DNA of 64,000 nucleotides from a virus (taxonomy: Duplodnaviria > Caudoviricetes): IMG/VR virus record IMGVR_UViG_3300025121_000014, positions 128,001 through 192,000 of that record. One strand, written 5' to 3'. A program made the translations under genes and the position numbers. The notes under the pieces were generated by a model. That model was not told the origin of the DNA. It did no database searches and saw only the letters and a program-made list of their open reading frames with translations. Position 1 is the stretch's first letter. Each line of letters starts with the position of its first letter. Positions 2,944-31,969 of this stretch are shown piece by piece.

Positions 2944-3276
2944 ATATTAATGTGTTTCAACGTTTCATAGACTTGACTATTGTCAACGCCTCACCGTCTT
3001 TTTGTTTATACTACGAAATCAGTCCCTGACCCACAGTTTAAAAATATTTTTAAACATTTTTAATGACACTTAACTTGGTTTTCGTTAAATGTTTGACTAT
3101 CAAGTATTTACATACTTGAACCTCAATGATTTTACTTGATCTAGGTTTGTAGATCAAAACCATTAAATCATTTCAAAGAACTTTTATTTAATTATTATAT
3201 ATATTAAATAATGAAAGCCAAAAAAGTCAAATTCATCACATAACTAAAGGTTTATGTGTTTTCTTTGATGGCTCAT
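2924..3276 (-). mobile_element. ORF-less IS200/IS605 mini-element A (left end + promoter + structured RNA + right end)
   Basis: On the minus strand: TTTAT then LE hairpin (atgagccatcaaag...gaatttgac); ends in hairpin + GTAGTTCAT; ends homologous to the intact tnpB element at 14510..15969. Confidence 0.85.
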
Positions 3277-18682: not shown

Positions 18683-19207
18683 ATGAAGTTAACAGATAAG
18701 CAAATAAAGGAAACATATATAAATGTATTAACTAGTACAAAAGTTAATGATATAATTAAGAAAAATAGCCAGGGACTTAAACTTGCGCTAAATGAACATA
18801 TATGGTTTGAAAAACAATTTGGTGTGAGAAAAGCAAATCTTAATTTTGCTATGACAACAGGTGAAATAGATGAATATGCCAAATGTAAAATGGATGTTCA
18901 TTACTTTGCAAATAAATATTGCCACATTAAAAGAGAAGACGGTACAATTGGACCAATGCAACTAAGAGATTACCAGAGAGATATTATAGATTTATATGTT
19001 AATAATAGATATTCTATATTAATGACTAGTAGACAATTAGGTAAGTGCAACTCCTTGGTAACCAGATTGTTAGTAAAATTTGACAATGGTGATGAATATG
19101 AAATTACTATGGGAGAATTATATTATACTTACATTCAACAAGAAAGAAAACTAACAATCATAGAAAAAATTAAACTTTTTCTATATAAAGCACTATCTAA
19201 ACTATAA
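18683..19207 (+). CDS. terL: Terminase large subunit N-extein (121 aa) + short split-intein N fragment (53 aa, 19046..19204)
   Basis: T4 gp17-like LRDYQ...MTSRQLGK, followed by Cys-initiated intein block A CNSLVTRLLV. Confidence 0.9.
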   Translation: MKLTDKQIKETYINVLTSTKVNDIIKKNSQGLKLALNEHIWFEKQFGVRKANLNFAMTTGEIDEYAKCKMDVHYFANKYCHIKREDGTIGPMQLRDYQRDIIDLYVNNRYSILMTSRQLGKCNSLVTRLLVKFDNGDEYEITMGELYYTYIQQERKLTIIEKIKLFLYKALSKL

Positions 19208-20884: not shown

Positions 20885-21736
20885 ATGACCCGTCAAAGAA
20901 AATCGTTAAATCTTTAGTTTAAAGGATGAATTTGACATACCAAAATTAAAATTTACTGATATAGATTTACACAGAGAATTTAAAGGTGATATAAAAACTA
21001 TAACTATTTCAAAAACAACAACAAATAAATATTATATAAGTATTTTAGTCGATAACAAAAAAGAATTGCCTGAAAAACAACCAATTAAATTAGAAACAAC
21101 CGTTGGTGTCGATTTGGGAATTAAAGATTTTGTTATCACTTCAGATGGAAAGAAATTCAAGAACCAAGATTTCTTTAAATCTGCTTTAAAGAAACTAAGA
21201 GTTGAACAGCGTTCCCTTAGTAGAAAACAAAAAGGATCAAACCATTATTTAAATCAAAAATTAAAGGTTTCATTATTTCACGAACACATTAAAAACCAAA
21301 GAGAAGATTACTTACATAAAATAACTAAATACCTTGTAGATAATTATGATACAATTTGTATAGAAAATCTTGGTGTTTCTAATATGATGAAAAACAATAA
21401 GTTAAGTCGTGCTATAAGTGATATGGGTTGGTTTAAATTTAAATCATTTCTTGAATATAAATGTGAATGGTATGGAAAGAATTTAAGTGTGATTGGTAGA
21501 TTTGATCCTTCATCAAAAACATGTTCTGTTTGTGGAAAAATAAATAAAGAATTAACATTAAAAGACAGAAACTGGAAATGTAATTACTGTGGAACAGAAC
21601 ATGATAGAGATATAAATGCTGCAATTAATATAAGAAATTTTGGGTTGAGGAACCAACCTAGCGTTACACAAAGTGAATGGTTGCATTGTGCTTGTAGCGT
21701 AGAAACACACAAATCTTCAGTTTGTGCGTAGTTCAT
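20885..21736 (+). mobile_element. Internally deleted IS200/IS605 element
   Basis: TTTAT then LE atgacccgtcaaag...gaatttgac fused directly to mid-tnpB; RE ends GTAGTTCAT at 21736. Confidence 0.9.
20937..21731 (+). pseudogene. tnpB: 5'-truncated tnpB (RuvC and Zn finger retained, N-terminal lobe and start codon lost)
   Basis: Frame IPKLKFTD...VGVDLG...IEN...CSVCG...CNYCG...DRDINAAINI; in-frame TAA at 20907 and no in-frame ATG ahead of RuvC I. Confidence 0.85.
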
Positions 21737-21776: not shown

Positions 21777-24026
21777 ATGATTAAATTATTTATAAAACAG
21801 ATAATATATTTAATAATAGAATTATTAGAAAAAATGGAATATAAAAATAATTCATTTGATGAAAATAATCCATTAAAAAAAATTATTAATACTATTCCTA
21901 TTGATAATGTTTCTATTGAAACCGATTATGGGTTTGTTCCTATAACTGAAATGAATTTAACTGCGCCATTATCATTATATAGATTAGAATTAGATAATGG
22001 AGATTGGTTAGAATGTGCAGATGATCATATAGTATTCACAGAAGGACATCAACAAAAATTTGTTAAAAATTTAACAACAGATGATAAAGTATTATGTAGA
22101 GAAAATTATATTGAAGGTATAAAAGTTAAATCAGTTAAAAATCTTAAAAGAAAAGTTAGTTTAATGGATATTACAGTAGATACTAATGAAAAAAGTTATT
22201 TTGCTAATAATATCTTAAATCATAATACAGTTTCAGCCGCAATTGTAATATTGCATTTTTGTTTATTTAAAGAAAATAAAGGTGTTATGGTTGTAGCAAA
22301 TAAAGGAAAAACAACAATAGAAATTATAGAAAAAATAAAAAGTATTTATAAATTATTACCATTCTTTTTAAAAGCGGGTATTATTAATTGGAATCAATCA
22401 AGTATTACTTTTGACAATGGTTGCCAAATTAAAACGGAAAAAAGAACTAAGGAACCTGCAATCGGTTTTACAATAGATCTCCTTTATCTTGATGAATTTG
22501 CTCATATACCTGAGAATTATATTGTACCGTATTATACTGCGGTTGTACCAGTTGTATCTAGTATTGAAAATTCAAAAATTATTATCACATCTACGCCAAA
22601 AGGATTAAACTTATTTCATAAATTATTAATAGAATCTGAATTACCAGAAGATGATCCTAATTGGAATGGTTATCGTTCTTTAAGAGTATACTGGTGGCAG
22701 GTAAAACATAGTAGAGATACAAAAATATTCTTTAACGAAAAGAAATTAAGAAAATATAAATTAAATAAAACTGAATTAAAACAATTCTTAATTGAAAATA
22801 AATATAACATTTATGAAAAAAACGAAAATAATTTAAATGGTATATTTATAAATTATGAACCAAATGAAGAAAGTACTCAGATTGATTATATAAGAAACTT
22901 AAGATATAACGAATTACCTTTATCTGAATTAGGTATGATTACTAATTGGGAGGAACAACAAACTAAATTGATTGGCGGAGAAGATGGTTTTAAACAAGAA
23001 TATGATCTTCATTTCTTAACAGGTAATAAAATGTTATTTGATAGTGTTCTTCTAGAAAAAATGATGGAAGACAAATTACCATTTGAATATTATAGTATTC
23101 CTATATTTAATGAAAAATTAAAAATACCTTATAATAATTTAACATTTGTTAAAGGACAACCAGAATTATTTGATATGAAAAAAGTAAAAGATTATCATAT
23201 TTTTATATCAATTGATTTAGGTGAAGGATTAGGTCAAGATTATAGTGTTATTAATATATTTAGAGTAATGCCAAAAACATCAGAAGAATTAAATTATTTT
23301 AAAAAACGAATTGATGGATTGTATGATTATTTTAAACTTGAGCAAATCGGTATGTTTAAATCAAATATTTATTCAGTTAAAGAAGTATCATTAATATTAT
23401 ATATGATTACTTTCGAATTATTTAATGATAATAAAGTAAGAATAGCACTTGAAAGAAATGTATATGGTGATGAACTTATTGCTCATATGCCACATGTTTT
23501 TGACGATAACAATAATTATTCTAGTCACGTATTTTTAAGATATAAACATAATTTAGAACAAAAAACATCTAGAATGGGAATAAAAGTTAATAGGAATAAA
23601 TTATCATTAATAAAAGATTATCAAATACAAACGAAAAAGGGAAATATTGTTATTCGTCATTTAAATACTATTACCGAATTAAGTACATTTACTAAAAAAG
23701 AAACTCCTAGTGGTGGAATTACATATCAAGGAGAAAGTGGTCACGATGACCAGGCAATGACGGTTATTGTTTTAGCAACAATATTTAATCATGTAGGATG
23801 GAAAAATTGTATTGAAGAATTTATGAAAGAAAATAAAGATAATAGAAATCTAATACATAATGATTTTAACAAAATTGTTGATGAATATCAAGCAGATATT
23901 GGTGATATTAAAACGTTTCAAATTTCATATAAAAAGATTTATAATAAAAATTACAATCCTAAAAATCAAAAACAAGTTGGATATGGTGGTAAAATAGCAC
24001 CTCCCATTTTTCCAACAAGAAGATAA
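21777..24026 (+). CDS. terL: Long split-intein C fragment (150 aa, 21777..22226) + terminase large subunit C-extein
   Basis: Block B LECADDHIVF, block G YFANNILNHN/T; then Walker B LLYLDEFAH, TSTP coupling motif, nuclease SIDLGEG...HDDQAM. Confidence 0.92.
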   Translation: MIKLFIKQIIYLIIELLEKMEYKNNSFDENNPLKKIINTIPIDNVSIETDYGFVPITEMNLTAPLSLYRLELDNGDWLECADDHIVFTEGHQQKFVKNLTTDDKVLCRENYIEGIKVKSVKNLKRKVSLMDITVDTNEKSYFANNILNHNTVSAAIVILHFCLFKENKGVMVVANKGKTTIEIIEKIKSIYKLLPFFLKAGIINWNQSSITFDNGCQIKTEKRTKEPAIGFTIDLLYLDEFAHIPENYIVPYYTAVVPVVSSIENSKIIITSTPKGLNLFHKLLIESELPEDDPNWNGYRSLRVYWWQVKHSRDTKIFFNEKKLRKYKLNKTELKQFLIENKYNIYEKNENNLNGIFINYEPNEESTQIDYIRNLRYNELPLSELGMITNWEEQQTKLIGGEDGFKQEYDLHFLTGNKMLFDSVLLEKMMEDKLPFEYYSIPIFNEKLKIPYNNLTFVKGQPELFDMKKVKDYHIFISIDLGEGLGQDYSVINIFRVMPKTSEELNYFKKRIDGLYDYFKLEQIGMFKSNIYSVKEVSLILYMITFELFNDNKVRIALERNVYGDELIAHMPHVFDDNNNYSSHVFLRYKHNLEQKTSRMGIKVNRNKLSLIKDYQIQTKKGNIVIRHLNTITELSTFTKKETPSGGITYQGESGHDDQAMTVIVLATIFNHVGWKNCIEEFMKENKDNRNLIHNDFNKIVDEYQADIGDIKTFQISYKKIYNKNYNPKNQKQVGYGGKIAPPIFPTRR

Positions 24027-27238: not shown

Positions 27239-27652
27239 TTATACTTTATTTCCTAAAAGTTTAATATTTTTTTGAATATTATTTATTTTTTTTATTCTTT
27301 TTATATTTAATGGAGTTAACGATTCAACTAACCATAGATAAAATTTAACAAAATCGTTATTTTTAATAGTTAATTGAATTTCAGGTGAATTATGTTTAAT
27401 ATTCATATATCTTTTATTAGCATCAATATAAACACTATCTACATCAATAAATTCATCGCTTATTGAGTATATACTATTTGTTAATAATTTTAACATATGT
27501 AATCTTCCAAAACTACTATTAGCAATTATTTTATTATTTAAAAATAATATAACTTGTTGGAATATACCCTCGTCATCAAATCTACTACTTTCAAAACCGA
27601 TTACTAATTCGAATTTATATTCATCATAAATCCAATAATATTTTTCTACCAT
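27239..27652 (-). CDS. Hypothetical protein
   Basis: ORF track. Confidence 0.65.
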   Translation of the reverse strand: MVEKYYWIYDEYKFELVIGFESSRFDDEGIFQQVILFLNNKIIANSSFGRLHMLKLLTNSIYSISDEFIDVDSVYIDANKRYMNIKHNSPEIQLTIKNNDFVKFYLWLVESLTPLNIKRIKKINNIQKNIKLLGNKV

Positions 27653-27659
27653 TATATTT

Positions 27660-29276
27660 TTATTTTAAATTCTTTAAATATTTAAATTTTAAATTACCAG
27701 AATTATAAATTCTATAAATTTTTCTTTCTAACATAATTTGATGTTCTGATTTATTAGCATCATAACCTTCTTTAATTAAAACATCTTTTCTAAATCCAAA
27801 CCTGTGATATCTAATACCATCAACGACATAATAATAATTTGGTTTAGATGTATGTGAATATATGAATCCTAAATATTCATATAATTTTCCAGTTGAATGG
27901 CTTCTATCTGCATACGTAGTTATTTCTTTAAATTCATAATTTCTTATAAAATATTTAAATAATTTTGAAGCACCACCTATTACATTAGTATTTAATTTAT
28001 TACAAAATCTTAACATTTCGAACTGCTTTTCTTTTGAAACTGAATTCATCATTTTTCTTAATCCACCAAAAGTCATTAAACTAACTAATTCATCTTTATA
28101 AAATAATCCTATTTTAATAGATGATCCCATAAATCCTTGAATATGATTTTCAGCCAAAAAGTTTCTGACTAATTTATTATCTGTTATTTCTTTTACTTCT
28201 GTTTTTCTTGCATATATTTTATTTGATGTTTTACCTAACTTATTTAAAATCATTGATTTAACTATATCTTGTTTATAAATCCAATCATCTTCATAAATGT
28301 GTATTAATTGAATTTTTTTTTCATCACATAAATCAGATTTTATTTTATGATAATCGTTTGATTTATATAATTCATTATGCCAATAAACTCCATTAAATTC
28401 AAATGCTAATTTTAAATCAGGTAAATAAATATCTAATTCATAAGGATTTATTATATTCCTATCATTTGTAATAATTTCTTCTTTATAGTTTTCTTTTATA
28501 AAATCTGATATTTTTATTTCAGAATCAGATTTAAAATTGAAACCTATTGAATTACACTTAGTACATAACGTAGAATTTAAAATTAATCGATTTTTTAATA
28601 ATCCTTTATTTATTTTAAAAATTTGGTTACAATTATTACATTTAATAAAATAATCCGGATTATTATAATTTATAACTATAATATTATATTTATCTTTATA
28701 GTATTTGATGGAATTTTTATTTTTAATATTTTGTATTTTTTTATATAATTCTTGTTGTATTTCTTTAGATTTTAATCTATATTCAACTCCATATTTTTCT
28801 AAATTTGTTATTTTAATTTTATCCCATACTTCTTCTGTTTCTAAACCATATTTCTTTCCGTATTTACTTAAATTAGTATTTTGAAGTTTTTTAATTATTG
28901 TATTTGAATGCATAGGGTGATCAACACCATATTTTTTTAATAATGTATTTTTAGATTTTTCTTTTATTTTATCTAATTGAAAAATATTTTCAACATTATA
29001 TTTATCATTTAATCTTCTAATACATTTATCATTAGAACATTTTTTAGAGCAACAATATTCTTCTGTTAAATTATTAGTATTTTTGATATATTGGAAATAT
29101 TTTAATTTTTTTTCTAATCCACATATATCACATTTTACTTTAATTTCAACATGACTATTTTTTGATAAATCTGTTGGTTTTACCAATGAATATTTTAATA
29201 AAACATCATACCCTAATTGTTCATAATGTTTTTTTAATTTTCTATTATTAATTTTTACTTCTTTTGTAATAATCAT
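27660..29276 (-). CDS. Free-standing homing-type endonuclease, paralog of 19202..20827
   Basis: Same architecture: CDICG, KYGVE repeats, ELDIYLPDLKLAFEFNGVYWH, near-identical C-terminal ~290 aa. Confidence 0.8.
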   Translation of the reverse strand: MIITKEVKINNRKLKKHYEQLGYDVLLKYSLVKPTDLSKNSHVEIKVKCDICGLEKKLKYFQYIKNTNNLTEEYCCSKKCSNDKCIRRLNDKYNVENIFQLDKIKEKSKNTLLKKYGVDHPMHSNTIIKKLQNTNLSKYGKKYGLETEEVWDKIKITNLEKYGVEYRLKSKEIQQELYKKIQNIKNKNSIKYYKDKYNIIVINYNNPDYFIKCNNCNQIFKINKGLLKNRLILNSTLCTKCNSIGFNFKSDSEIKISDFIKENYKEEIITNDRNIINPYELDIYLPDLKLAFEFNGVYWHNELYKSNDYHKIKSDLCDEKKIQLIHIYEDDWIYKQDIVKSMILNKLGKTSNKIYARKTEVKEITDNKLVRNFLAENHIQGFMGSSIKIGLFYKDELVSLMTFGGLRKMMNSVSKEKQFEMLRFCNKLNTNVIGGASKLFKYFIRNYEFKEITTYADRSHSTGKLYEYLGFIYSHTSKPNYYYVVDGIRYHRFGFRKDVLIKEGYDANKSEHQIMLERKIYRIYNSGNLKFKYLKNLK

Positions 29277-29280
29277 AATA

Positions 29281-30213
29281 TTATATTTTTATTTTAAATT
29301 CTGTTAATGGAAATTCTTGTGGTTTATAAATTTTTTCTCTTCTTGATATATATTGATTATATATAATATTTTTATAAGATGGATGATATTGATCAACTAT
29401 ATCAAACACAACTAACTTTTCTTTATCTGCATGTAATCTTAATCCACGACCAATTGATTGTCTAATTATTTGATCTGATTTAAAACTGTCAGCAAAAACA
29501 ACATTCATTAAATTTTTAACATTTATACCTGTTGAAAATGTTCCAAATGACGCAATTAATATTTTTGGTTTATTATCCGATATCTCCATTATTTTTTTAA
29601 TTTTTTCTCTTTTATCTTTATTAGTACCACCGTCAATATAATAAAAGAATTTATCTGTAATATTATCTCTAAGATATTCATATAATTCTGTACCATATAT
29701 TATATTATGAAATAATATTAATGAATTGCTTGTAAACTTATCTACTAATTTTTTGAAGAACATTTTCCTTCTTAATGATTTTTGAGCAAATTCTTTTTCT
29801 AATAAATATGCTTCTTTTCCTTGACCTCTTTTTTTAATAGCATACATTTTTTGTGAGAAATCTTCTTCATCATGATTTAATATCATAGCATTAATTTTTA
29901 CCTTAGATACTAGACCTTTATCCATTAATTCTTTAGCTTTAACAGTCATTAATTTAGGTCCCATTAAAGATTGAATAGTAAGAATTTCGGCTGAACTATT
30001 CGGTGGATATGTTCCAGATAACCCCAATCTATAAATAGCATTACCAAATGTTTTAGATAGTATTGTATCTAAACTTTTTGCTTTTGCTACGTGGCAATTA
30101 CTAACACATATTCCATTAGCAAAATAATTATTATTTATATCATTTCCTTCTTTTATTCTTATATTATAAACGTCACCAGTATAATCTATTTTTTTAATTG
30201 ATTTAATTTTCAT
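29281..30213 (-). CDS. uvsW: Split-intein C fragment (39 aa, 30097..30213) + UvsW helicase C-extein
   Basis: MKIKSIKK...VYNI...YFANGICVSN/C, then CH (completes DECH), LSGT motif III, ASFGTFSTGINV motif V, QSIGRGLR motif VI. Confidence 0.9.
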   Translation of the reverse strand: MKIKSIKKIDYTGDVYNIRIKEGNDINNNYFANGICVSNCHVAKAKSLDTILSKTFGNAIYRLGLSGTYPPNSSAEILTIQSLMGPKLMTVKAKELMDKGLVSKVKINAMILNHDEEDFSQKMYAIKKRGQGKEAYLLEKEFAQKSLRRKMFFKKLVDKFTSNSLILFHNIIYGTELYEYLRDNITDKFFYYIDGGTNKDKREKIKKIMEISDNKPKILIASFGTFSTGINVKNLMNVVFADSFKSDQIIRQSIGRGLRLHADKEKLVVFDIVDQYHPSYKNIIYNQYISRREKIYKPQEFPLTEFKIKI

Positions 30214-30237
30214 TATAATTTTTTATCATTTTTATTT

Positions 30238-31293
30238 TTACATATTAAAATCTATAATATCATCATTTTCTAATAAATTGTCTACTCTTTTCCATATACC
30301 ATTTTTTAATAAAACTTTATGATTTCCTGTAATATAGATAAATTCACCATTTTCTAATTCTAATTCATACATATTTTCAAATTTAGATAAGTTTTTGTAA
30401 ACATAATCAACCTGTTTTATTTCTTTTTCTTTTGTTAATTCATTAAATGTCCATACTTCATCTCCTATATTAATATTTTTTATCATTTCTTTATTACCAG
30501 ATCCCATTTCTATTAAAGTATTAGGGTGTAAACATTCATCTGTGACAACAATATCAAATTTTTTGAAATAATTGATATCATATTTATCCGATGATAAACT
30601 TTGATAAGTTCCAATATAAATATTAGGTTCTTCACCATCTCTTACTTTTCTTGGCTTATCAGAAAATACTTCTTCTATTTTCAAATTAAATGGATTTGTT
30701 TGTTCTTTATTAAATCCTAAATTATAATCTAATATTTCATCGTAAAATTGAGTTACTAAACTCATTCTAGGTACAATTAATAGAACTTTAATATCAGGAT
30801 TGATAAACTTCATTATGTAAAATATAAACGTTGAAAATATAAGAGATTTTCCACCAGCAGTTGCTACTTCAATTAAACCAAATTTATATTTCAACATTTG
30901 AAATACAGCATCTATTTGATGTTCATAAGGCATAAATAATCCTAATGGATTATCTTTAGTTGGAGGAACTCTATAATTTTTAAAAAATTCTTCAACAAAT
31001 TCTTTAACATCTTCTAATTTGATATTTAAATCAAATGGAAATGATGTCTTATCGACATCAAATTTATAATCATGATTCCGACAACATTTATATACTTCTT
31101 TCCAAAGACCGTATCTTATAATACCATTATGAAAATGATCAATAGAACCATCCCAAACTCCTAATTTATGTCGTTTTTTAAAATGATATCCTTCTACTTT
31201 TCTAGTAAGATGTAATTTTAATTGATGATATTCTTCATGAGTAGATTCTTTAATTATTATCTTATTTTTGTCGTCTGTTATTACTAATTTCAT
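30238..31293 (-). CDS. uvsW: UvsW helicase N-extein + split-intein N fragment (98 aa, 30241..30534)
   Basis: PYEHQ Q-motif, ATAGGKS Walker A, IVVTDE then intein CLHPNTLI...ITGNHKV (TxxH block B). Confidence 0.9.
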   Translation of the reverse strand: MKLVITDDKNKIIIKESTHEEYHQLKLHLTRKVEGYHFKKRHKLGVWDGSIDHFHNGIIRYGLWKEVYKCCRNHDYKFDVDKTSFPFDLNIKLEDVKEFVEEFFKNYRVPPTKDNPLGLFMPYEHQIDAVFQMLKYKFGLIEVATAGGKSLIFSTFIFYIMKFINPDIKVLLIVPRMSLVTQFYDEILDYNLGFNKEQTNPFNLKIEEVFSDKPRKVRDGEEPNIYIGTYQSLSSDKYDINYFKKFDIVVTDECLHPNTLIEMGSGNKEMIKNINIGDEVWTFNELTKEKEIKQVDYVYKNLSKFENMYELELENGEFIYITGNHKVLLKNGIWKRVDNLLENDDIIDFNM

Positions 31294-31294
31294 A

Positions 31295-31771
31295 TTAATT
31301 CGTTCCTAAAATATCCATTAATTGAATTCTGTTTTTAACAGCATAATTCATTGTAATAAAATTACTTGATGTATCTCTTAAAAATTTTATATGATTATCT
31401 AATAAATCTATTCTATATTGAAATTTTGCTATATCTGCTTCAATTAATCCGTTTTTATCTGATCCACTAGTTACCTTTATCTGGTATTTTGTTGAGTAGA
31501 ATTCAAATCTTTTCTTTTTTGCTTGTTTAATAGATGGCATATTTTTATACAAAATCAAAGAATATTTTCTAACCTGTTCAAGAACAATCTGTTGATAACT
31601 AATTATATCGGCTTGTACTTCTACAAGTTTTTTTACATCACCTTTAAGTGTAAATGAAATAGTTTTAACTAAATTATTCCAATAATTAACTTCCTTTTCT
31701 AAATCTATTTCAATTTTTTGAGTTTCGTTATCATATAATTTTGCTTTATCTAGTTCTTGTTCATCTGCCAT
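31295..31771 (-). CDS. uvsY: UvsY-like recombination mediator
   Basis: Helical 158 aa, C-terminal YAVKNRIQ motif, adjacent to uvsW as in T4-like phages. Confidence 0.6.
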   Translation of the reverse strand: MADEQELDKAKLYDNETQKIEIDLEKEVNYWNNLVKTISFTLKGDVKKLVEVQADIISYQQIVLEQVRKYSLILYKNMPSIKQAKKKRFEFYSTKYQIKVTSGSDKNGLIEADIAKFQYRIDLLDNHIKFLRDTSSNFITMNYAVKNRIQLMDILGTN

Positions 31772-31969
31772 ATTATTAAATCTTTTTTCTTTATATATTA
31801 ATAAGATATATTTGTTTATCTAAAAATAATTTTTAATATATTTTTACAAGTTTCATATGAATATTCAAAAAAAACATTGAAAGCTTTAGGTTTAAATTAT
31901 TGAGTTATCTTTCCAAAAATTATATATTTCAAATATTTATATATAATATAAAAATAAAGAATTGTTAAA

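Follow-up and report, generated by a model that had tools for sequence, protein, structure and literature searches.

A canonically split intein without an endonuclease gene in motif II of the UvsW helicase of a groundwater huge phage

Introduction

Why is the gene of a phage helicase broken into two open reading frames (ORFs) exactly within motif II, and can a gene in such a state still provide a working enzyme? This question is raised by the uvsW locus of a huge phage from groundwater (Duplodnaviria; Caudoviricetes), recorded in IMG/VR as IMGVR_UViG_3300025121_000014. We analysed positions 128,001 to 192,000 of this record, a stretch of 64,000 nucleotides (nt) hereafter called the window, whose G+C content over the whole length is 22.4%; all coordinates below are counted from its first letter. 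The two uvsW ORFs lie on the minus strand, adjacent and co-oriented, head to tail, with 24 nt between them. An initial annotation, made from the letters of the sequence, had interpreted them as the carriers of a canonically split intein interrupting the DECH motif between DE and CH (written below as DE/CH, the slash marking the splice junction). The arguments presented here, drawn from sequence comparison and from a structure prediction, lead us to regard the two UvsW halves as very probably a functional trans-splicing intein.

Results

Structure and identity of the broken gene

The first ORF (351 amino acids, aa) reads as UvsW up to ...VVTDE, which ends at aa 253. Directly after DE comes Cys254 (codon 30534-30532), which is Cys1 of the intein; the N-terminal intein half (IntN) is 98 aa long, carries the tetrapeptide TGNH near its end and is then closed by a TAA stop (30240-30238). 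In the frame of IntN the spacer that follows contains three more stops (TAA, TGA and TAA), and its other two frames are closed too. The second ORF (310 aa) opens with MKIKSIKK..., continues for 39 aa of the C-terminal intein half (IntC) to ...CVSN and goes on with CH and the Helicase_C domain; IntN and IntC are in the same reading frame. In all these particulars, including the position of the stop, the layout described in the initial annotation proved correct.

The identity of the host protein as UvsW, an SF2 DExH helicase of T4-like phages, is clear from the match to the UvsW_N model PF21241 (40 bits against a cut-off of 25.3) and from alignments with the UvsW of phage T4: the N-extein aligns with residues 20-232 of 1RIF/2OCA (E = 5e-16) and the C-extein with residues 234-458 of 2OCA (E = 2e-27), its first residue corresponding to C234. 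The insertion point is thereby located between E233 and C234 of T4 UvsW, inside DECH (motif II), and ligation of the two exteins would be expected to restore DECH in a 524-aa UvsW collinear with that of T4.

As to the intein, both of its halves are recognised by the curated models of NCBI: the model of the intein N-terminal region, TIGR01445, matches residues 254-328 of the first ORF (27.9 bits, cut-off 24.5), and that of the C-terminal region, TIGR01443, matches residues 14-40 of the second one (17.1, cut-off 15.6). The Pfam family Intein_splicing matches the halves with E = 2.7e-8 and 1.6e-3, both under the gathering score (34.2 vs 35.8). Among the structures of the Protein Data Bank (PDB), IntN resembles the DnaB mini-inteins 4O1R and 1MI8, its TGNH aligning with their block B (TGNH/TANH); IntC alone gave a marginal match to PI-PkoII and nothing better in the same database. 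Cys1 and the block-B TGNH (residues 322-325) are invariant in 17 aligned IntN sequences (the window and 16 relatives), and so are Asn39 and Cys40, i.e. Cys+1, in 18 aligned IntC sequences (the window and 17 relatives). The split lies between blocks B and F, at the position where inteins accommodate an endonuclease, and in 47 relatives an endonuclease gene is found exactly there. The net charge is -7 for IntN and +2 for IntC, and the same polarity of an acidic IntN and a basic IntC is characteristic of DnaE split inteins. These features are those of a class 1 intein (Hint splicing domain) and support the initial proposal that a split intein of the canonical type interrupts the UvsW DECH between its E and its C; the family comparison, the docking prediction and the selection analysis described below point the same way.

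A Shine-Dalgarno motif is absent in front of IntC, which is normal for the window, because a Shine-Dalgarno-like 4-mer occurs upstream of only 2 of its 78 ORFs of at least 100 aa. Such scarcity suggests that the host or the phage may use Shine-Dalgarno-independent initiation. TAA is the stop codon of 60 of the same 78 ORFs.

Reality of the interruption

It could be supposed that the intein is in fact contiguous, as at three other loci of its family (L048, L143 and L156; L numbers denote the loci collected below), and that the interruption either arose as an error of assembly or sequencing or is skipped by the translating ribosome. The existence of contiguous alleles at the same site favours this supposition, as does the common frame of IntN and IntC; besides, AUG is both the codon before the stop of IntN and the start codon of IntC, formally like the take-off and landing codons of a bypassing ribosome. 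An artefact is contradicted by a Logan contig of 701 nt assembled from another groundwater sample (X5), which corresponds to 30162-30862 and is identical to the window across the junction, with zero differences. Likewise, a 2768-nt contig of X1, a possible source sample, covers 29764-31400 with zero differences. Furthermore, four in-frame stops (counting the TAA that ends IntN) fall within 27 nt, so one base error cannot explain the split, and the other two frames offer no way through. Short endonuclease-free spacers are present at five to seven other loci. As for translational bypassing (AUG-UAA ... AUG), the relatives have other, varying codons at the end of IntN and thus do not share the AUG match, and inspection of the sequence, without computed folding, revealed no G+C-rich hairpin at the stop; we rejected this candidate as an unconserved coincidence. 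Taken with all its variants, the artefact or bypass explanation appears to us extremely improbable.

The initial annotation had named an assembly error as a danger to its interpretation and had advised checking the stop at 30238-30240 in raw reads. The split withstands the first objection; as to the second, the stop is unchanged in the assembled contigs of the two samples, the check thus extending to contigs and not to the reads themselves. Two other kinds of matches were discarded in the course of this comparison. A contig joint leading from 29241 to 30190, with 21 nt on its shorter side, was rejected as a chance match in A+T-rich sequence or a match from another organism, and the many 35-nt pieces of unrelated contigs that fall on the locus were interpreted likewise.

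Selection, predicted assembly and splicing residues

The closest relative of the window is L003 (the same contig as L085), identical to it by 73-74% in the exteins, by 74% in IntN and by 87% in IntC. Between these two, the ratio of nonsynonymous to synonymous substitution rates (dN/dS) equals 0.20 for IntN and 0.14 for IntC, in comparison with 0.21 and 0.16 for the exteins, all four values being approximate, as dS is near saturation (0.55-1.19). The values being alike, the two parts of the intein seem to be guarded by selection no less than the helicase itself. This bears on the view that uvsW is here a decaying pseudogene, whose intein was broken by the stops and neither half of which gives a working helicase. 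UvsW is known to be dispensable for plaque formation by T4, and the locus is crowded with selfish elements, as would befit a gene in decay. Yet all four segments are of full length and have dN/dS of 0.14-0.21 relative to L003, the ORF of IntC retains the family-conserved Met-Lys-Ile-Lys start, and the two-ORF layout is kept in dozens of phages, including the cultivated phage S16; we consider decay highly improbable.

Association of the halves was modelled with VVTDE plus IntN as one chain and IntC plus seven extein residues as the other. The predicted complex reached an ipSAE (interaction prediction score from aligned errors) of 0.82 (0.81-0.82 in three runs), with 0.01 for the best of three controls, a partner pLDDT (predicted local distance difference test) of at least 76 and a contact agreement of at least 94%. 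Of 78 solved complexes, 51 attain the mark used for docking, as do 2 of 108 mismatched pairs. The prediction supports binding of IntN and IntC to each other, although the pass may reflect likeness to split-intein complexes already solved rather than the own binding of the UvsW pair.

A docking prediction speaks for association and not for chemistry, and one can imagine that no splicing takes place at all, the intein halves serving as a tight non-covalent dimerisation module that turns UvsW into a two-chain enzyme. A precedent exists in a phage ribonucleotide reductase which is reported to be split by an endonuclease gene and reassembled via interaction domains without splicing (PMC3045599); in addition, three residues assisting the splicing reaction are all absent in the window, namely Asp at position F:4, His at F:13 and His at G:6. 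On the other hand, with the break inside motif II (DE/CH) a two-chain enzyme would have to harbour about 137 extra residues in its ATPase site. Pure dimerisation would not need Cys1, the block-B Thr and His or the terminal Asn, all of which are invariant in every aligned member, and the DnaE intein of Nostoc punctiforme (Npu), with the same ...SN end, splices fast. We regard the two-chain enzyme as very unlikely.

Several circumstances do weigh against a working intein. Asp at F:4, His at F:13 and His at G:6, which are common in inteins though not obligatory, are normally credited with aiding the cyclisation of Asn and the coupling of the steps. In the window, F:4 is Asn instead of Asp, and this Asn is invariant in the family. 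At F:13 both the window and L003 have Asn and most relatives His, this change being the only trait peculiar to the clade of these two; and G:6 is Ser instead of His. The positions were assigned via the 7-residue spacing of shorter family members and the familiar block F of Npu DnaE, VYD...DHNF. Splicing could, in consequence of the non-canonical F:4, F:13 and G:6, be slow or conditional. To this should be added that the dN/dS values are approximate and that the junction is confirmed in assembled contigs and not in raw reads.

Not every intein requires the histidines at F:13 and G:6, the one at G:6 being absent from about 5% of the functional ones (review of Mills, Johnson and Perler, PMC4031507); Npu DnaE ends with ...NGFIASN/CF (PMC6086869). 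The penultimate Ser, which the initial annotation had pointed out as unusual, is indeed present, but it is no oddity: 66 of 70 family members end with SN/CH, and Npu DnaE, the standard example of a canonical split intein, has the same residue. Considering the invariant catalytic residues, the constraint on both halves and the predicted complex, we hold it very probable that the UvsW halves form a functional trans-splicing intein. A bolder idea concerns the clade of the window and L003, in which all three assisting residues are replaced under strong purifying selection. This clade might employ a different catalytic arrangement, or else slow or condition-dependent trans-splicing might serve as a switch, setting the moment at which active UvsW becomes available and hence that of the shift from origin-dependent to recombination-dependent replication; together with the intein of TerL, it might also offer a ready-made orthogonal pair. 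We find this proposal unlikely.

The intein family at the DE/CH site

In translated searches (tblastn) of the GenBank phages, the similarity to Salmonella phage S16 with its relatives and to the Prevotella megaphages Lak-B extended through the whole of IntN, while a nucleotide search (megablast) with 27600-31800 gave no match among GenBank phages. An exhaustive profile-free search for IntN produced 142 clusters at the 50% identity level with E < 1e-10, mostly of 310-350 aa with a C-terminal IntN, some of them of 590-750 aa with an internal one. Scans of IMG/VR and of JGI metagenomes yielded 160 loci, which reduce to at least 68 distinct alleles of the UvsW intein; a single-protein scan of IMG/VR returned no matches, and it was the alignment-based scan that found them. 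Besides, uvsW is intein-free in about 40 related phages (e.g., L015 and L016) and reads straight through DECH.

The alleles differ in what separates IntN from IntC. Full-length endonuclease genes are present in 47 distinct alleles, 45 of them having a free-standing gene similar to gp114.1 of S16, the remaining two being L112, with an in-frame fusion, and L003, with a different gene. A spacer of 167-530 nt is found in 11 distinct alleles, and in six of these 11 fragments of a gp114.1-like gene are recognisable. Short spacers, or none, without an endonuclease (24-77 nt) are characteristic of eight distinct alleles, L106 and L151 being split examples; the 24 nt of the window are the shortest of the eight. 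Over the family, the spacers of the relatives range from 54 to 1716 nt. Finally, the truly contiguous mini-inteins comprise three distinct alleles, those of L143, of L156 and of L048 with its duplicates. In distant phages conservation is higher in the intein than in the extein (for L020, 66-69% vs 31-36%), as is expected of a horizontally moving element.

Some of the loci deserve separate mention. At L112:3016-4333, IntN continues in frame into the gp114.1-like endonuclease, with 439 codons before a stop is met, and IntC has an ORF of its own in a different frame; the allele resembles an intermediate on the way to an intein with a built-in endonuclease. L103 and L106 (IntN at 3016 in both) have the same identities to the window (56% in IntN, 62% in IntC) and the same IntN tail, yet in L103 the mini-intein is contiguous, whereas in L106 about 77 extra nt at the junction close the frame of IntN and leave IntC in another frame. 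The difference may represent a recent split or a recent re-fusion. At L066:4630-6137 and L067:4555-6116, uvsW is broken some 40-60 codons before DECH by approximately 1.5 kb unlike the UvsW intein, i.e. at a different insertion site of the same gene.

The intein is unannotated in GenBank phage genomes such as that of S16. In the literature on UvsW combined with inteins or split inteins we found no description of an intein at the UvsW DE/CH site (PMC3322345 and PMC2988022 are without it), by which an earlier description in print is neither shown nor excluded.

Probable loss of the endonuclease gene

The tree of the intein unites the window with L003 and L086, with a support of 94 in the Shimodaira-Hasegawa-like approximate likelihood ratio test (SH-aLRT). 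L086, as well as L084 and L087, carries the gp114.1-like gene, and L083 and L096 carry its remnants. In L003 the halves are separated by the gene of a 571-aa endonuclease of the phrog_3339 family with DUF7487 repeats, and a second copy of that family lies directly downstream of UvsW-C; the window has the downstream copy only and none between the UvsW halves. The most economical explanation is that the ancestor of the clade had a gp114.1-like gene, which the window lineage lost fully and in place of which L003 now possesses a phrog_3339 gene. The tree is based on 131 columns and many of its forks are unresolved, so that the direction of loss rests on parsimony. Endonuclease-free or contiguous states are scattered over the tree beside endonuclease-bearing sisters (L127 with L122, L152 with L069, both with SH-aLRT of 98), and, judging by the branches with strong support, the short-spacer state must have arisen independently three times or more. 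The window locus is the endonuclease-free end of the series of states observed in the family.

Neighbouring endonucleases and the second intein

The free-standing endonuclease gene downstream of UvsW-C is associated with the uvsW locus but is not part of the intein. Its product is 58% identical to a paralog situated inside the break of the terminase gene. Both paralogs consist of DUF7487 repeats and a C-terminal domain, which in the 564-aa copy matches the Pfam family Mom (27.4 bits, cut-off 27.1). From the conserved motifs, we would read the phrog_3339 endonucleases (the two of the window and the 571-aa one of L003) as having a Vsr-like nuclease core. Elsewhere in the window there is a full-length TnpB of the IS605 type (424 aa, with OrfB_IS605 and Cas12f1-like TNB domains), and a shorter, truncated TnpB-related ORF lies inside the terminase locus.

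The initial annotation had also claimed that a single genome carries two structurally different split inteins, and so it does: the UvsW intein is canonical, and that of TerL, the large subunit of terminase, is atypical, with a different cut point. The short N piece of TerL opens its intein with Cys after the Walker A lysine, and the C piece of the intein (150 aa) bears block B and ends with NHN/T. The TerL halves are separated by the gene of the 564-aa phrog_3339 endonuclease, which runs on the opposite strand, and by the truncated TnpB-like ORF. In the window the profile of the UvsW intein family detects only these two Hint elements, the TerL match being weak (E = 5e-5, IntN profile), and local alignments of the two inteins confine their similarity to blocks F and G. 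Cross-splicing is unlikely because the split points differ and the similarity is low, which makes the mutual orthogonality of the two inteins, regarded as necessary in the initial annotation, plausible from their sequences. Among split inteins of phages, mutual orthogonality has been demonstrated for several (PMC11766414). The short N piece and the position of block B on the C piece liken the TerL intein of the window to AceL-TerL and GOS-TerL (PMC11766414); the canonical UvsW intein differs from both of them in the host protein and in the split point.

Table 1. Coordinates of the uvsW locus and of the other features of the window referred to in the text
Feature	Coordinates	Strand	Remarks
First uvsW ORF, 351 aa	30238..31293	-	UvsW N-extein and IntN
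UvsW N-extein, 253 aa	30535..31293	-	UvsW_N and RecA-like domain 1 with Walker A, up to D-E of motif II; Pfam UvsW_N, ResIII, DEAD
IntN, 98 aa	30241..30534	-	Cys1, block B TGNH, net charge -7; TIGR01445
TAA stop of the UvsW-N/IntN ORF	30238..30240	-	unchanged in a contig from another sample
Spacer, 24 nt, A+T-rich	30214..30237	-	three further in-frame stops; relatives have an endonuclease gene at this place; no Shine-Dalgarno motif
Second uvsW ORF, 310 aa	29281..30213	-	IntC and UvsW C-extein
IntC, 39 aa	30097..30213	-	blocks F and G, Ser-Asn end, net charge +2; TIGR01443
UvsW C-extein, 271 aa and stop	29281..30096	-	Cys+1-His first, completing DECH; RecA-like domain 2; Pfam Helicase_C
Free-standing homing-endonuclease gene, 538 aa	27660..29276	-	4 nt past UvsW-C; phrog_3339, E = 8e-121 over full length; DUF7487
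TerL, N-terminal ORF	18683..19207	+	short N piece of the TerL intein
Endonuclease paralog, 564 aa	19202..20896	-	phrog_3339; inside the terminase break
TnpB-related ORF, truncated	21066..21731	+	inside the terminase locus
TerL, C-terminal ORF	21777..24026	+	C piece of the TerL intein
TnpB, 424 aa	14522..15796	-	IS605 type, full length

Discussion

The proposed course of events at the locus is as follows. Both ORFs would be translated from one transcript, after which the acidic IntN would assemble with the basic IntC into a Hint fold. A thioester would then form at Cys1 and be attacked by the extein's own Cys+1, and the terminal Asn would cyclise. The expected products of this trans-splicing are the 524-aa UvsW with an intact DECH and the two released pieces of the intein. 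As to the history of the arrangement, we suppose that a free-standing endonuclease gene of the gp114.1 type, placed between the halves, had split the intein and driven its spread among very different phages, and that in the lineage of the window this gene was wholly deleted, leaving the 24-nt spacer with its stops. At present the intein of the window would be an immobile splicing element, yet one that is still obligatory.

An arrangement of this kind is known from the fractured genes of Dassa et al. (2009; PMC2677866), which comprise eight host enzymes, among them the gp41 helicase and terminase, UvsW not being one of the eight. In both cases a phage gene of DNA metabolism is interrupted by a split intein, the halves being adjacent and having the same order and strand, and in the usual state of the UvsW family, likewise, a free-standing endonuclease gene lies between the halves. 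The endonucleases of the fractured genes are Vsr-like or of the GIY-YIG type, whereas the usual one of the UvsW family is gp114.1-like (with weak matches to TnsA-like and NUMOD3 families of Pfam, below their cut-offs). The window departs from this arrangement by its spacer of only 24 nt and by the absence of an endonuclease gene between the halves, in which absence it is similar to gp41-7, the one locus without an endonuclease gene in that work (PMC2677866).

In Salmonella phage S16 (NC_020416), the same DE/CH site is occupied by gp114 (UvsW-N and IntN), gp114.1 (291 aa) and gp115 (IntC and UvsW-C), labelled in the record as 'DNA helicase' and 'hypothetical protein' and not as an intein. The inteins of S16 and of the Prevotella megaphage Lak-B4 are 45-57% identical to that of the window in IntN and 46-59% in IntC and have the same two-ORF layout. 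Unlike the window, both phages possess an endonuclease gene between the halves: in S16 it is gp114.1, with weak NUMOD3 and TnsA-like Pfam matches below the cut-offs, and in Lak-B4 (L002, 2953-6250) its product has 413 aa. The intein of S16 ends with AHN, that of the window with VSN. The frames of Lak-B4 are open only if TAG is read as Gln, one TAG being located inside IntC.

With the DnaE inteins of Npu and Ssp the UvsW intein shares the canonical split between blocks B and F, the size of the halves (about 100 aa in IntN and 35-39 aa in IntC), the pair Cys1 and Cys+1, and the acidic character of IntN and basic one of IntC; Npu DnaE is also alike in the penultimate Ser (...IASN). The sequences are not closely related: DnaE has Asp at F:4 and His at F:13 (VYD...DHNF), whereas the window has Asn at both, and the halves of DnaE are far apart in a cellular genome, in contrast to the adjacent halves of the window. 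As for the endonuclease flanking uvsW, a counterpart is SegE of T4, a free-standing GIY-YIG endonuclease that lies beside uvsW and targets it (PMC2988022). In both phages an endonuclease adjoins uvsW, and SegE shows that this gene is a habitual target of homing endonucleases. The differences are that SegE is a GIY-YIG enzyme encoded upstream of a gene with no intein, and the gene of the window is of the phrog_3339 type and lies downstream.

The present locus leaves the current understanding unchanged, as both the arrangement and an endonuclease-free example of it have already been published for other phage genes. Its main value lies in its place within a series of evolutionary states that is unusually broad, and in the candidate orthogonal pair that it forms with the TerL intein. 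On the practical side, the UvsW intein is a compact, canonically split Cys1/Cys+1 intein (98 and 39 aa) with unusual residues in block F, which together with the TerL intein makes a candidate natural orthogonal pair.

In the public data sampled, the family at the UvsW DE/CH site spans most stages of the endonuclease life cycle: the empty site, the contiguous mini-intein, the split intein with a full endonuclease gene, the fusion of IntN with the endonuclease, decaying remnants and, as the last stage, halves free of the endonuclease, to which the window belongs; in this it supports the gene-breaking model of Dassa et al. The window locus is real and probably a functioning instance of a type of selfish element already known and, if trans-splicing does occur, the phage can make its key recombination and repair helicase only when two polypeptides meet and splice.

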